DNA of 64,000 nucleotides from Oscillospiraceae bacterium (GTDB lineage: Bacteria > Bacillota > Clostridia > Oscillospirales > Oscillospiraceae), in assembly GCA_040307975.1 (NCBI GenBank), contig JAWRIJ010000080.1, positions 3,390 to 67,389 of the forward strand. Direction: 5' to 3'. Made by a program: the position numbers and the translations under genes. The first letter of the stretch is position 1, and the number at the start of each line of letters is the position of its first letter. Shown piece by piece: positions 50,271 to 54,676 of this stretch. The notes beneath the pieces are model-generated. The model made no database searches, had not been told where the DNA came from, and saw nothing but the letters and a program-made list of their open reading frames with translations.

Positions 50271-51752
50271 ATGAATCAGAATACGCAAATCTATCAGGAT
50301 ATCTCCACGCGGACCTCGGGCGATATCTACATCGGCGTCGTCGGACCCGTGCGCGCGGGCAAATCCACTTTTATCAAGCGCTTCATGGAAACGCAGGTCA
50401 TTCCTAACATTGACAACGTCTATCGCCGCGAGCGGGCAAAGGACGAACTGCCGCAGAGCGGTTCGGGACGTTTGGTGATGACCGCGGAGCCGAAGTTCGT
50501 GCCGGAGGAGGCGGTCGATATCGCGCTCGGCGACGGCGCGAGCTGCTCAGTGCGGCTGATTGACTGTGTGGGTTACATGGTGCCCGGCGCCGCCGGCGAT
50601 ACGGACGGCGCCGCGCCGCGCATGGTCTCAACGCCGTGGCTGGAACACGAGGTTCCAATGTCGGAAGCCGCGGAACTCGGCACAACGCGCGTAATTCGCG
50701 AGCACTCGACCATCGGTATCGTCGTGACCACGGACGGCAGCATTACCGAGATCCCGCGCGAAGCCTACGTCGAGGCGGAGGGACGCGTGATCCGCGAGCT
50801 GCAGGCCATCGGAAAACCGTTTTTGGTTCTGCTCAATTCCGCCGACCCGTCGTCTGAGCGCGCAAGCGCCATGGCGGAGGATATCGCGCAGACCTACGGC
50901 GTGAGCTGCCTTCCCGTCAACTGCCTGACGCTGGACGACGCGGCGGTGGAAGAGATCCTCAAGGCAATCCTCTATGAGTTTCCGCTCACAGAGCTTGATG
51001 TCCGCATCCCCTCCTGGGTCGAGGCGCTCGATGTCGGGCACCCCATCAAGTGCGGGCTTTACCGCACGATACGGGACAGCGCGCGAAATCTGCGCCACAT
51101 TCGAGAGGTTGCCGCCGCTGTCGACGCCATGGGCGGATTCGAGGGTATCAGCGAGGCAAAGATCAACGCCATCCAACTCGGCAGCGGCGTCGCCGAAGCG
51201 GAGCTTCAGCTGCCGCGCGAATTGTTCTATCAGACGCTCAGCGAGCAGTCCGGCTTTCCCATCGCCAACGACGGCGATCTGCTGTCTCTTCTCACACAGC
51301 TCTCGTCCGTCAAGAGCGAGTATGACAAGGTAGCGCAGGCGGTCAAGGACGCAAGAGAGACGGGCTACGGCATCGTGGTGCCGGGCGTAGACGAGCTTGA
51401 CCTGGCCGAGCCGGAGATCATGAAGCAAGGAGGGCGCTACGGCGTCAGGCTCAAGGCAAGCGCACCGAGCATCCACATGATTCGCGCGGATATCGAGACG
51501 ACCGTTTCGCCTATTGTCGGCAACGAAAAGCAGTCCGAGGATATGGTCAACTATCTTTTACAGGAATTCGAGGGGGATACCGCTAAGATTTGGCAGTCGA
51601 ACATCTTCGGGCGCAGCTTCCACGAAATCGTCAACGAAGACCTTCAGGCGAAGCTCAAACGTATGCCGGAGGACGCCCGCAAAAAGCTTCAGGAAACGCT
51701 GGAGCGCATTATTAACGAGGGCAGCGGTGGCTTGATTTGCATTATCCTGTAA
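50271..51752 (+). CDS. spoIVA: Stage IV sporulation protein A
   Basis: IGVVGPVRAGKSTFIKRF, ELPQSG, MTAEPKFVP and C-terminal NEGSGGLICIIL. Confidence 0.97.
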   Translation: MNQNTQIYQDISTRTSGDIYIGVVGPVRAGKSTFIKRFMETQVIPNIDNVYRRERAKDELPQSGSGRLVMTAEPKFVPEEAVDIALGDGASCSVRLIDCVGYMVPGAAGDTDGAAPRMVSTPWLEHEVPMSEAAELGTTRVIREHSTIGIVVTTDGSITEIPREAYVEAEGRVIRELQAIGKPFLVLLNSADPSSERASAMAEDIAQTYGVSCLPVNCLTLDDAAVEEILKAILYEFPLTELDVRIPSWVEALDVGHPIKCGLYRTIRDSARNLRHIREVAAAVDAMGGFEGISEAKINAIQLGSGVAEAELQLPRELFYQTLSEQSGFPIANDGDLLSLLTQLSSVKSEYDKVAQAVKDARETGYGIVVPGVDELDLAEPEIMKQGGRYGVRLKASAPSIHMIRADIETTVSPIVGNEKQSEDMVNYLLQEFEGDTAKIWQSNIFGRSFHEIVNEDLQAKLKRMPEDARKKLQETLERIINEGSGGLICIIL

Positions 51753-51800: not shown

Positions 51801-51840
51801 AGCAGACCTCCGGAGGCGGAAGCACTACCGGAGGTCTGCT
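51801..51840. terminator. Hairpin between the convergent spoIVA and xer genes (probable bidirectional terminator)
   Basis: 13-bp stem AGCAGACCTCCGG / CCGGAGGTCTGCT. Confidence 0.7.
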
Positions 51841-51869
51841 ATTGTAAAAAAGAATTCTTTTGTTCAATT
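51840..51869. other. Candidate recombinase site B (dif-like), overlapping the xer stop codon
   Basis: TATTGTAAAAAA-GAATTC-TTTTGTTCAATT. The right 12 bp are identical to site A and the outer 11-bp left arm matches 8/11. Confidence 0.55.
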
Positions 51870-52878
51870 ACTTGCTTTCTTTCGGCGCTTTTACGCGGGA
51901 GAGGGGATTGGCCTTGGCGGCGACGCGCAGCGCCTCATTGTCAATGTGGGTATATATCTCCGTTGTGTTCAGATGCTCGTGCCCGAGAACCTCCTGAACG
52001 GCGCGCACGTCGACGCCGTTTTGCAGCATCAGCGTTGCGGCGGTGTGCCGCAACTTGTGCGAAGAATACTGCGTCGCGTCAAGGCCGGCGGCGGAGATAT
52101 GCTTTTTTACCAGCGCGTGGACGGTCGATTTGCTGATGCGTTCGTTGCGTGAGGACAAAAACAGCGCGTTTTGGTCACGTCCCGTGATCGGCCTGCGGAG
52201 GGCTAAATATGCGCTCAGCGCGTCAAGACACGCATCATTGAGATAGACAATGCGGACTTTGTTGCCCTTGCCGAGCACATGCAGCGCTTCCTCCTGAATG
52301 TCCTGCAGATTTAATCCGCAGAGCTCTGAAATTCGCAGTCCGCAGTTCAGAAAAATCGTCAGGATGGCATAGTCCCGTTCGCGGTTCGGCCCGTCGACCG
52401 ACGACAAAAGTCGCATGCTTTCGTCTAAAGTCAGGTATTTTGGCAGCGTTTTCTTAAGCTTTGGCGAATCCAAGTCCTTGACGGGACTGTTTTCGATCAG
52501 GTGCGCTTTATTGGTCAGATAGTTGTAAAAAGAGCGGATTGTCGAAATTTTACGTGCTCTGGACGCGGCATTTAAGCCATAATCCGACTTGCCGCTGTTT
52601 TGGTGCTGGATACGGTCGCGACTTAGATAGGACATATACTCATATATATCGGTGAGCGTAACGGAGCGGACAAACTCTAAGTTGATATCCATGATGGATA
52701 TTTCACTGAGTTCGCTTCCGCGCAGCGACGGATCGCGAGTCATCTTCAAATACCGGAAGAAATTGCGCAGATCAAGAAAGTATTCGTCAACGGTACGTTT
52801 GGAGTGCGCCTTGATGGTTTCGTGATACGAAAGAAAGTCACGGAGGATCGGCGGCGCTTCGGTACGATAATCAATCAT
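51868..52878 (-). CDS. XerC/XerS-like chromosomal tyrosine recombinase
   Basis: Full catalytic set: R (GLRISEL), K (GKGNK), HxxR (HKLRH), H (LGH) and Y (TEIYTH). 336 aa, no phage context. Confidence 0.9.
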   Translation of the reverse strand: MIDYRTEAPPILRDFLSYHETIKAHSKRTVDEYFLDLRNFFRYLKMTRDPSLRGSELSEISIMDINLEFVRSVTLTDIYEYMSYLSRDRIQHQNSGKSDYGLNAASRARKISTIRSFYNYLTNKAHLIENSPVKDLDSPKLKKTLPKYLTLDESMRLLSSVDGPNRERDYAILTIFLNCGLRISELCGLNLQDIQEEALHVLGKGNKVRIVYLNDACLDALSAYLALRRPITGRDQNALFLSSRNERISKSTVHALVKKHISAAGLDATQYSSHKLRHTAATLMLQNGVDVRAVQEVLGHEHLNTTEIYTHIDNEALRVAAKANPLSRVKAPKESK

Positions 52879-52930
52879 AAATTCCGCTCCTGATCAAGTA
52901 GAAACTGTGTGAATCGATCAAAGTATTTTA

Positions 52931-52959
52931 ATCATAGCGCAGAATCGCCGAAAAAGCAA
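52931..52959 (-). promoter_or_regulatory. sigma-A promoter of the xer gene
   Basis: On the minus strand: TTGCTT, 17 bp, TATGAT. Confidence 0.65.
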
Positions 52960-53018
52960 ATGCAGCGTTGCAAGCTGGCGTTGATAAAATGGACAGGATT
53001 TGCAGAACGCCCCCCCTA

Positions 53019-53048
53019 AATTGAACAAAGCTTTCATTTTGTTCAATT
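53019..53048. other. Candidate recombinase site A (dif-like), 140 bp upstream of xer
   Basis: Perfect 11-bp inverted repeat AATTGAACAAA-GCTTTCAT-TTTGTTCAATT with an asymmetric core. Confidence 0.65.
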
Positions 53049-53163: not shown

Positions 53164-53373
53164 ATGAGTTATATTCCTTGCAGCATGGATTGCCGTTTTC
53201 AAAATGACGGACTATGCGGTTTGAACTATGCAAGTGCGGTTTCATCAGTCGGCGTACACGACAACGATAACGGATGCCTTCATTATGTACCGCGCAACAG
53301 CGTGCTCAAGAGCGCGCAATTTCACGGAGCGCATCAGCGATATTCGATACCGAGATCAGCTTCAGACCTTTGA
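53164..53373 (+). CDS. Small Cys-rich protein (CxxxC...C...C; DUF1540-like pattern)
   Basis: AAGGAG RBS; MSYIPCSMDCRFQNDGLCGL...GCLHY. The 3' end overlaps the radA 3' end. Confidence 0.7.
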   Translation: MSYIPCSMDCRFQNDGLCGLNYASAVSSVGVHDNDNGCLHYVPRNSVLKSAQFHGAHQRYSIPRSASDL

Positions 53374-54676
53374 TCTGCTCCAAACGGCCGGAATGGCTTT
53401 TGGGAATGATGCAGACCTCAAAGCCGAGGCGCGCCACTTCGCTCAGTCGCTGTGAAAGCTGGCTTACGCTGCGCACCTCCCCAGTCAAGCCAACCTCTCC
53501 GATCGCAGCGACACGGGCGCCGATGGGCTTGTCCAAATAGCTCGACGCCAGCGCAAGGATCGCGGCGAGGTCGGCGGCGGGCTCGTCGAGCGTCAGACCA
53601 CCGATGACGTTGAGATACGCGTCACAGGCGGAAACCTTCAACGCGCCCCGCTTTTCCAGCACTGCCATAAGCATGGCGGCGCGATTGTAATCAAAGCCGT
53701 TGCTGGTGCGCCGCGGTACGTTCTGCGCCGCAGGCGCGAGCAGCGCCTGAACCTCGGCAAGTACTGGACGCGCGCCCTCCATCACGCAGGTGACGCAGGT
53801 GCCCGGCGCGTCCGTGGGACGACCGGAAAGCAGCAACTCCGAAGGGTTTGGCACCTCGGCGAGCCCTTCGCTGCGCATTTCAAACACGCCGATTTCATTC
53901 GTTGCGCCGAAGCGGTTTTTTGCCGCGCGCAGGATGCGGTAGGTCGTGTGCTGATCGCCCTCGAAGTAGAGCACGCAGTCGACCATGTGCTCGAGCACCT
54001 TCGGCCCCGCGATAGAGCCTTCCTTATTGACGTGTCCGATGACGAACACGGTGATACCCTGCCCCTTGGCAAGCTGCATCAGCGCCATGGTGCAGTCCTT
54101 AACCTGCCCGACGCTCCCTGCCGGAGAGTCAAGGCTTTCATTGTAGAGCGTCTGGATGGAGTCAATGATCAACACGTCCGGACGCTCTTCATCCACCGAC
54201 TCCAGCACATCCCCGAGGCAGGTTTCCGACAGGACGAAAAGCCGCTCGCTCTTGACGCTCAGACGCGCCGCGCGCATCTTGAGCTGGTGCGGCGACTCTT
54301 CGCCCGATACATACAACACCTTGTTTGCCGTGCAAAGCTGCGAACAGATTTGGAGCATAAGCGTGGATTTTCCGATACCGGGCGCACCGCCAACTAATAC
54401 CAGCGAGCCTTTGACGGCGCCGCCGCCGAGCACGCGATCCAGTTCACCCATGCCGGTCGGAAAGCGAAGCTCCTCCTCTGCGCTCAGGTCGTCAATGGGA
54501 TGCGCCTTGGCGCGGGGCGCCATACCACCTCTCCCCTTTGCGGCGGGCGCGTCTTTTTTCGGCGCCGTCTGTTCCACGATCGTGTTCCACGCGCCGCAGG
54601 ACGGGCAGCGGCCTGCCCACTTGGAGGTCTCGTTCCCACATTCGGTACAATAAAAAACAGTCGTTTTCGATTTCAT
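53306..54676 (-). CDS. radA: DNA repair protein RadA/Sms
   Basis: Zinc finger CTECG...CPSC, GAPGIGKSTL, KNRFG and GEVGLTGEVR. Confidence 0.97.
   Translation of the reverse strand: MKSKTTVFYCTECGNETSKWAGRCPSCGAWNTIVEQTAPKKDAPAAKGRGGMAPRAKAHPIDDLSAEEELRFPTGMGELDRVLGGGAVKGSLVLVGGAPGIGKSTLMLQICSQLCTANKVLYVSGEESPHQLKMRAARLSVKSERLFVLSETCLGDVLESVDEERPDVLIIDSIQTLYNESLDSPAGSVGQVKDCTMALMQLAKGQGITVFVIGHVNKEGSIAGPKVLEHMVDCVLYFEGDQHTTYRILRAAKNRFGATNEIGVFEMRSEGLAEVPNPSELLLSGRPTDAPGTCVTCVMEGARPVLAEVQALLAPAAQNVPRRTSNGFDYNRAAMLMAVLEKRGALKVSACDAYLNVIGGLTLDEPAADLAAILALASSYLDKPIGARVAAIGEVGLTGEVRSVSQLSQRLSEVARLGFEVCIIPKSHSGRLEQIKGLKLISVSNIADALREIARS

Follow-up and report, generated by a model that had tools for sequence, protein, structure and literature searches.

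The resolution of chromosome dimers is a near-universal housekeeping function and, to our knowledge, the published single-recombinase systems are XerS, XerH, XerA and XerL. The locus described here lies in a stretch of 64,000 nucleotides from an Oscillospiraceae bacterium (assembly GCA_040307975.1, contig JAWRIJ010000080.1, positions 3,390 to 67,389; C80:3390-67389 in our contig numbering), which is referred to throughout as the window. It comprises a palindromic candidate dif site (site A), a linked gene for a divergent tyrosine recombinase of the Xer type (xer), and a second, degenerate Xer-type site (site B) at the opposite end of that gene. As regards the closest described systems, some archaeal species carry an xerA/dif module (PMC2958812, PMC5357621), and XerL was missed by homology searches, its site being exploited by an element that carries no integrase (PMC9765430). 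Xer-type sites may also serve without recombining: according to the account in PMC11894783, which cites Karaboja 2021, the XerD sites termed XDS unload SMC in the B. subtilis terminus. In a genome-wide prediction of dif sites from 2011, C. perfringens and C. beijerinckii were left as not determined, and the C. botulinum sites were placed ~174 degrees from the skew shift (PMC3025954). In the full-text literature, no description of the present gene-plus-site module was found for Clostridia, in agreement with what an earlier note on this sequence (hereafter the original prediction) had supposed for a self-bracketed Xer gene.

Site A (53019-53048, AATTGAACAAAG-CTTTCA-TTTTGTTCAATT) lies upstream of xer (51868-52878, minus strand), with 140 bp between the end of the site and the ATG of the gene. 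Site B (51840-51869, TATTGTAAAAAA-GAATTC-TTTTGTTCAATT) is found at the other end, where the TAA stop codon (51868-51870) shares two bases with it. Neither site is assigned to a strand. The two are direct repeats 1179 bp apart, with identical 12-bp right arms and left arms that match at 8 of 12 positions. All of this geometry, down to the 140-bp gap and the overlap with the stop codon, was reproduced at the coordinates originally claimed. As read in the window, site A has an 11-8-11 geometry, with arms AATTGAACAAA(G) and TTTTGTTCAATT and the core CTTTCA; in relatives the geometry is 12-6-12, and the window's own 12-6-12 copy contains one inner mismatch (A...C). The reading that we favour, with a probability of roughly 0.7, is that site A would be the dif site of this lineage, that the linked recombinase would act there, and that site B would be a binding-only site.

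The position of site A on the chromosome is the first line of evidence. Across the 56 kb that lie left of the site the GC skew amounts to +0.073, and across the 24 kb on its right to -0.039; the cumulative GC-skew maximum of the 80-kb contig falls at window position 53002, only 17 bp away. Furthermore, long open reading frames (ORFs) read rightward on the left of the locus and leftward on its right. The simultaneous reversal of skew and of ORF orientation therefore identifies the locus as the junction of two replichores. The same coincidence recurs in five other genomes from four further families (80 kb each), where the distance from the palindrome to the skew maximum is 55, 114, 301, 1297 and 2414 bp. 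Genome G033 is complete, a single contig of 2,229,578 bp with dnaA at base 22, and its palindrome, at 1,145,999, falls at 51.4% of the total length. A single FtsK/SpoIIIE gene that includes a gamma domain was found in each of the nine genomes tested. Scanning for the dif sequences of B. subtilis and E. coli, together with a relaxed inner-palindrome pattern, revealed no dif of either type conserved in relatives. One classical-looking candidate, AAGTAACATAACTTATATTATGTAAATG at C56:6090-6117, which includes an XerD-type arm, was rejected as the dif of the lineage because it is absent from every relative in the genus. This site immediately precedes the start of a gene; it may represent an operator or belong to an accessory element.

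The second line of evidence concerns the near-uniqueness of the site. The source genome consists of 181 contigs and 2,248,792 bp, with 60.5% G+C, and the arm 11-mer TTTGTTCAATT occurs in it only four times on both strands, three of them at this locus, compared with ~0.2 copies expected as estimated from base composition. The fourth copy, on contig C73, is an unpaired arm that falls within long open frames. The two sites are thus not a product of chance, and the genome scan that had been proposed with them shows the arm to be rare. Across 41 relatives, a degenerate palindrome pattern gives approximately one match per genome, usually adjoining xer; a second match is observed in a few genomes, and the reversed-pattern control is almost empty. 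Most orthologous loci of the order carry a 12-6-12 palindrome 22-973 bp upstream of xer. An upstream palindrome is also present in Oscillibacter, Pseudoflavonifractor, Ruminococcus, Acutalibacter, Anaeromassilibacillus, Clostridium hydrogeniformans and a Tissierellia metagenome-assembled genome.

The arms themselves are informative, since the outer part varies by lineage with both arms changing together (AATTGAACAAAA, AACTCAACAAAA, AACGCAACAAAA, AATTATACAAAA, AATTTCGCTAAA, AACTTCGCTAAA, TTAGTCACAAAA). In a comparison of 50 distinct sites, 8 of the 12 positions are changed on both sides, and the number of double-changed cells (90) is well above that in shuffles (22.5), none of the 500 shuffles reaching the observed value. 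A one-base slide of one arm abolishes the signal. The paired percentage is inflated, because part of the set was selected as palindromic; the count of two-sided changes nevertheless reads, from these alignments, as the signature of one protein species recognizing both arms. In the same 50 sites, C8, A10-A12, T20, T21 and G23 are invariant. The cores of site A are strongly conserved as well, TTTTTA being found in most, and in the lineages that also carry site B, site A shows the inner asymmetry AAAG/CTTT.

Copies of the site carried by phages add a third line of evidence. In 23 viral contigs (L149-L171), many of them 4.5-8 kb long, arms of the Oscillibacter type surround other cores, namely TGATAT in nine contigs, which share the same flanks, and TAGTTA in three. 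One of these, L156, is a 5.8-kb microvirus contig encoding a major head protein, a replication initiator and a transposase-family ORF, and no tyrosine integrase was found on it. By analogy with known elements, this is the pattern that would be expected of phages borrowing the Xer system of the host. Contigs L163, L165 and L168 carry the host-type core together with the C-rich box described below, and one of the flanks of L169 is G-rich and of host type; these four may be prophage-host junctions. Collectively, the skew switch, the near-uniqueness, the order-wide linkage to the gene, the symmetric co-variation of the arms and the phages that lack an integrase make it very probable that site A is the chromosome dif, the site of dimer resolution that had been proposed.

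The linked enzyme was placed by its scores against curated hidden Markov models and by its matches to solved structures. The 336-residue product contains the Phage_integrase and SAM-like N-terminal domains (PF00589, 141 bits; PF02899), and reaches 234.1 bits against the XerC model TIGR02224 (cut-off 335.15), 220.9 against the XerD model TIGR02225 (329.6) and 200.7 against the XerA model NF040815 (220). With the XerS model NF003462 the score is only 154.5 bits against a cut-off of 267, and the match is split into two stretches. Among solved structures, the best matches are those to XerD of E. coli (E 2.7e-39) and to XerA of archaea (E 7.6e-35 and 7.5e-33), XerH being much more distant (E 2.7e-19). 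The enzyme is thus classed, on sequence, as a divergent member of the XerC/XerD group that falls below all curated Xer cut-offs, and the label "XerS-like" given to it originally has to be abandoned. Public sources name it XerC. Among 11 orthologues, the most distant at 47% identity, the columns of R182, K207, H274, R277, H300 and Y309 do not vary and, by comparison with XerD, we read these residues as the putative catalytic R-K-H-R-H/W-Y set.

Orthologues are present in 25 of 25 high-quality relatives; identity is 79-90% for those of the genus itself and 42-62% for those of 16 other families in the order. Among named genomes, Oscillibacter sp. 1-3 comes closest (79%). Relatives at 45-57% identity are found in Pseudoflavonifractor, Butyricicoccus, Ruminococcus, Acutalibacter, Anaeromassilibacillus, Faecalibacterium, Clostridium hydrogeniformans, Proteiniclasticum and the Tissierellia metagenome-assembled genome. 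The mechanism we propose is as follows. Site A would lie where the two replication arms meet, and the product of the adjacent xer gene would act on it; a homodimer of the recombinase would bind both identical arms and pair the two sister copies of the site, and strand exchange across the 6-bp core would turn a chromosome dimer into monomers. The FtsK/SpoIIIE translocase probably controls the reaction. Gene and site would form a linked module that has been inherited vertically through Oscillospirales, with relatives farther out in Clostridia.

One arm of site A is abutted by a C-rich box, CCCCCCCT (53010-53017, plus strand), which was compared across 70 loci (among L005-L034 and L055-L134), with the palindromes oriented by the T-rich strand of the core. 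In the great majority of these loci a box close to CTCCCCT, plus 1 nt, adjoins the left arm. The flanks differ markedly in composition, the left one containing 38% C and 8% G and the right one 14% C and 20% G. The side on which the box is located tracks the core, irrespective of the direction of the gene: here and in most genera the box separates dif from xer, and in two clades of the genus with the same gene order it is on the far side. The dif core and the box are inverted in place relative to radA and xer in L011-L021 as compared with L005-L010 and L055-L073, the order of the genes being unchanged. The box is also present in genomes that lack XerD and at the extra full sites of some relatives, and it is absent from site B and from the recurrent, attachment-site-like phage copies. 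Judged from this distribution, the box appears to make an otherwise symmetric site polar.

Site B is real, conserved and confined to this genus, unlike the module as a whole, which is widespread in Clostridia. Read in the orientation of xer, it consists of the consensus arm AATTGAACAAAA overlapping the stop codon, the spacer GAATTC and the variant arm TTTTTTACAATA. This arrangement occurs in eight lineages of the genus including the window. In the seven others, the site is no more than 5 bases away from the stop codon in five cases, and is found 21 and 89 bp downstream in the remaining two. A 6-bp spacing is common to all eight, and no two of the spacers are alike (GAATTC, GAAATG, GATTTG, CTTAAG, CTTTTG, CAAAAC, CAAATC and GTTTAG), none of them equal to the core of site A in the same genome. 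A genuine second site had been predicted here, with a core that would make excision of the gene unlikely, and both parts of that claim are borne out. The expectation of conserved arms at both ends of orthologous loci held for site A, across the order and beyond it, and failed for site B outside the one genus.

The balance of this evidence tips slightly towards site B being a selected, binding-only Xer site at which strand exchange would not occur. The principal competing explanation is that it is a decaying relic of a local dif duplication or of a past insertion, with no present function and with a likeness that was inherited and not selected; this is possible, at odds clearly below even. It would account for the absence of site B from two clades of the genus that are well supported and from all other genera examined, for its loss in about half of the species, and for five further species in which only the consensus half-site is left at the stop codon, followed directly by a terminator hairpin. 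It would also fit the lack of a C-rich box and the variant arm, TTTTTT[AG]CAAT, with T or C throughout at the position of the G that is invariant in all 50 distinct dif arms. Simple decay does not readily explain, however, why the mean pairwise identity across the eight lineages is 0.91 for the left arm and 0.82 for the right arm, compared with 0.45 for the spacer and 0.32-0.34 for the 12-nt flanks, at a spacing of exactly 6 bp. Nor does it explain the half-site. The stop codon falls in a different register in different species, as TAA before the arm in the window and as TGA inside the arm in others, and two reading-frame registers mean that its conservation does not derive from coding constraint. 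What the losses do imply is that site B is not essential.

A second alternative, which concerns site A, is that a classical two-recombinase dif operates in this genus, the linked enzyme serving as XerC and a canonical XerD occupying the other arm, with activation by FtsK as in E. coli and B. subtilis. A canonical XerD is indeed encoded on contig C167 (C167:38190-42428), where it scores 367 bits against the cut-off of 329.6; its gene follows a weak spoIIM-like gene and precedes ruvC, ruvA and ruvB. No genome of the genus lacks it. The distance from xerD to dif is 1-50 kb in several relatives, and in G040 and G010 the two are adjacent. The name XerC used by public sources for the linked enzyme and the AAAG/CTTT asymmetry of site A in the B-bearing lineages point in the same direction. 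On the other side, the arms are identical or nearly so and co-vary symmetrically across lineages, and the linked enzyme misses the XerC equivalog cut-off (234 vs 335).

The distribution of XerD in the order bears directly on this question. At a threshold of E <= 1e-40, 8 of the 16 other families contain only the divergent enzyme, in genomes that are 90-100% complete. Five of these genomes (G026, G027, G035, G038 and G039) keep the perfect palindrome, which in G035 is located at the terminus, 301 bp from the skew maximum; in the remaining three (G028, G029 and G032) no match to the palindrome pattern was found. Since the palindrome is retained without XerD, the linked enzyme would suffice in those lineages, and canonical XerD appears, from gene content, to be dispensable for the module in other families. 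The original claim of a single recombinase is thus supported only in part: canonical XerD coexists with the linked enzyme in the present genus, and eight sister families have no XerD. Taken together, these data leave the two-recombinase dif as an unlikely alternative for this genus, although one that deserves to be kept in view.

The remaining alternatives are weaker. Site B could be a working alternative or back-up dif: sister copies of B share their cores, so that B x B recombination could resolve dimers though A x B recombination cannot. The two arms at the correct spacing, the consensus left arm and the position 1.2 kb from the skew switch are compatible with such a role. The cores of true dif sites are nevertheless strongly conserved, unlike the eight B spacers; the variant arm carries T at the position of the invariant G, the C-rich box is missing, and many species do without site B altogether. 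A back-up function is therefore improbable.

Still less credible is a present or recent mobile cassette, in which the gene and its two sites would leave as a 1.18-kb circle, either as a pdif module or as an element exploiting the Xer system. The sites enclose exactly the promoter, the ribosome-binding site and the ORF, and the phages that exploit the system carry the same arms around other cores, both of which speak for this explanation. The xer gene is, however, universal in the order, and the cores of A and B never match. The order of radA, the small ORF, dif and xer is identical in clades with and without site B, and spoIVA lies downstream of xer even in another family, which argues against a recent arrival of the gene as a cassette. 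The suggestion that site B is the relic of a pdif-like cassette was accordingly not upheld: the radA-dif-xer order is kept genus-wide, and site B is found in one genus only. Neither the deletion junction nor the circle junction of an A x B event was detected in metagenome contigs, a weak negative obtained with exact strain-specific patterns. Finally, the possibility that the palindrome is a transcription-factor operator or an RNA hairpin, for which symmetric co-variation and a position upstream of a gene would equally be expected, is the least probable of all, given its location at the GC-skew switch in six genomes of five families, its uniqueness per genome, its dif geometry, a distance to the gene that ranges from 22 bp to 8 kb with flips of orientation, its copying by phage contigs on which no integrase was found, and invariant positions that go beyond mere pairing.

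Returning to the favoured reading, the recombinase would bind site B without productive strand exchange, and B would therefore neither excise the gene together with A nor be used as a regular dif. Its effect would most likely be exerted in cis, by looping with dif over the 1.18-kb gene, by autoregulation or by acting as a roadblock at the 3' end of xer. All three are conceivable; the neighbour of the proposed roadblock would be spoIVA, which is convergent and strongly expressed. A more specific proposal, which we put forward tentatively and with low expectation, is that site B is a cis partner for dif: recombinase molecules bound at A and at B would synapse across 1.18 kb with strand exchange blocked by the differing cores. 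Until cleared by a translocase, the resulting loop would hold dif in an occupied state on monomeric chromosomes, so that unwanted exchange between sisters is prevented, and/or silence the enclosed xer gene. The C-rich box would then be the other half of the way in which a symmetric site acquires direction. If this were true, the B loop would amount to a control device made of protein only, in an Xer system with a symmetric site and a single recombinase.

Several points weigh against the reading as a whole. Binding, cleavage and dependence on FtsK are all properties that we infer from sequence, and any role of site B in cis is speculation. The arms resemble the classical XerD arm, and the proximity of xerD to dif in several relatives adds to this; the selection of part of the palindromes mentioned above should also be counted here. 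Moreover, approximately 40 of 110 loci have no clear palindrome within 1.5 kb of the gene: in some it lies farther away (7-8 kb in G017 and G033), and in others none was found. As for site B, its loss in about half of the species of the genus is unfavourable, and the Xer protein tree of the genus is poorly resolved, so that neither a single-clade status of the B-bearing species nor a date for the origin of B was recovered from it.

Some arrangements observed in relatives deserve mention in their own right. In G017, the closest species-level relative, a 7-kb sugar-modification cluster is located between dif and xer (L135, G017:C30:64000-80500); it contains a dehydratase, a nucleotidyltransferase, EamA, a DegT aminotransferase and YfhO. 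An interpretation of these 7 kb as a site-flanked inserted element was rejected, since no second site accompanies the cluster. Genome G014 contains a site-A-like palindrome without an xer match and was considered as evidence of excision; it was likewise set aside, as its flanks show no relation to the window and genome completeness is 70%. Second full sites, composed of the C-rich box plus the palindrome, occur at L136 (G016:C13), L137 (G005:C83), L138 (G017:C21), L139 (G026:C42) and L140 (G014:C198). Their cores are ATTTGA, CTTATC, TTTGCA and CTTGCA, and their contexts are neither syntenic nor obviously mobile. These could be sites of another replicon or of a second strain in the bin, or else landing sites.

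The immediate neighbourhood of the module is as follows. The gene spoIVA (50271-51752, plus strand; TIGR02836, 683.8 bits) is convergent with xer and is the last gene of the rightward-reading replichore, and radA (53306-54676, minus strand; TIGR00416, 585.6 bits) is co-directional with xer and is the first long gene of the leftward-reading one. Between spoIVA and site B, a hairpin with a 12-bp stem, GCAGACCTCCGG...CCGGAGGTCTGC (51802-51839, no strand assigned), has an inner part that was scored as terminator-like on the minus strand; from its sequence and position it is probably a terminator common to the two convergent genes. A candidate xer promoter, TTGCTT-17 nt-TATGAT (52932-52960, minus strand), was read by eye between site A and the gene. 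Its identification is a weak inference, and a consensus promoter scan did not list it. An ORF of 69 codons, rich in cysteine and preceded by a strong ribosome-binding site, lies between radA and dif (53164-53373, plus strand) and shares 68 bp with the 3' end of radA. It corresponds to a gene call of 69-72 amino acids in close relatives, with 36-77% identity across much of the genus, and has no Pfam or NCBIfam match.

When compared with known systems, the module most nearly recalls streptococcal-type XerS/difSL (PMC1914069, PMC2965235), in which the recombinase gene is likewise linked to a dif located just upstream of it, at the terminus and with an FtsK homologue, and in which one enzyme is sufficient, as it would be here at least in the sister families without XerD. 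It differs in belonging to another protein family and in its 30-bp, perfect or nearly perfect 12-6-12 palindrome, as opposed to the 31-bp asymmetric difSL; furthermore, the present genus keeps XerD, and adds the second site at the stop codon and the polar C-rich box. With archaeal XerA/dif (PMC2958812, PMC5357621) it shares a single recombinase, two inverted 11-bp arms and a 6-bp core. The host is instead a bacterium with an FtsK gamma domain, the enzyme falls short of the XerA cut-off (200.7 vs 220), and the site lies ~180 degrees from oriC.

The likeness to the XerC/XerD-dif systems of E. coli and, with CodV/RipX, of B. subtilis extends to the superfamily, the catalytic residues, the 11-6-11 geometry and the location at the terminus. 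When we compared the arm TTTTGTTCAAT with known ones, 9 of 11 positions agreed with the XerD arm of E. coli, and 7 of 11 with the B. subtilis-type arm given in the supplement of PMC3025954. In contrast to those systems, the arms are identical and co-varying, the gene is linked to the site, the enzyme scores below both cut-offs, and half of the sister families have no XerD. XerH/difH of Helicobacter and Campylobacter and XerL/dif of Legionellales are comparable in achieving dimer resolution with a single recombinase at a partly palindromic site near the terminus (PMC3325230, PMC5241119, PMC9765430). Their sequences are more distant (that of XerH at E 2.7e-19) and their hosts belong to another phylum, and no second site bracketing the gene has been described for either.

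Site B has its own parallels. Acinetobacter pdif modules and other elements that exploit Xer (PMC5357621, PMC6449649) also hold DNA between one good and one degenerate Xer site, the differences disfavouring excision. Unlike in those modules, the gene bracketed here is the recombinase itself, in an ancestral and syntenic position and with no sign of mobility. To the extent that they are described in PMC11894783, the XDS of B. subtilis are also Xer-type sites near the terminus that would be bound without recombination, as is proposed here for site B. They are, however, several, dispersed and bound by XerD, whereas in the 80-kb terminus contig a search with exact 10-mer words revealed no arm copies besides A and B, the remainder of the terminus region being located on other contigs.

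Set beside these systems, the window offers a clean and well-positioned alternative, in which a palindromic dif would be linked to a divergent Xer gene of its own; the arrangement is seen across Oscillospirales and has relatives among Clostridiaceae and Tissierellia. The pattern of coexistence with XerD and of its loss, the oriented C-rich box and the genus-specific second site all provide ways to ask how a homomeric recombinase acting on a symmetric site gains direction and control. In functional terms, with one recombinase, a site at the terminus that is partly or fully palindromic, frequent linkage of gene and site, and exploitation by elements that lack an integrase, the module is like the XerS, XerH, XerA and XerL systems; by membership in the curated models it is none of them.

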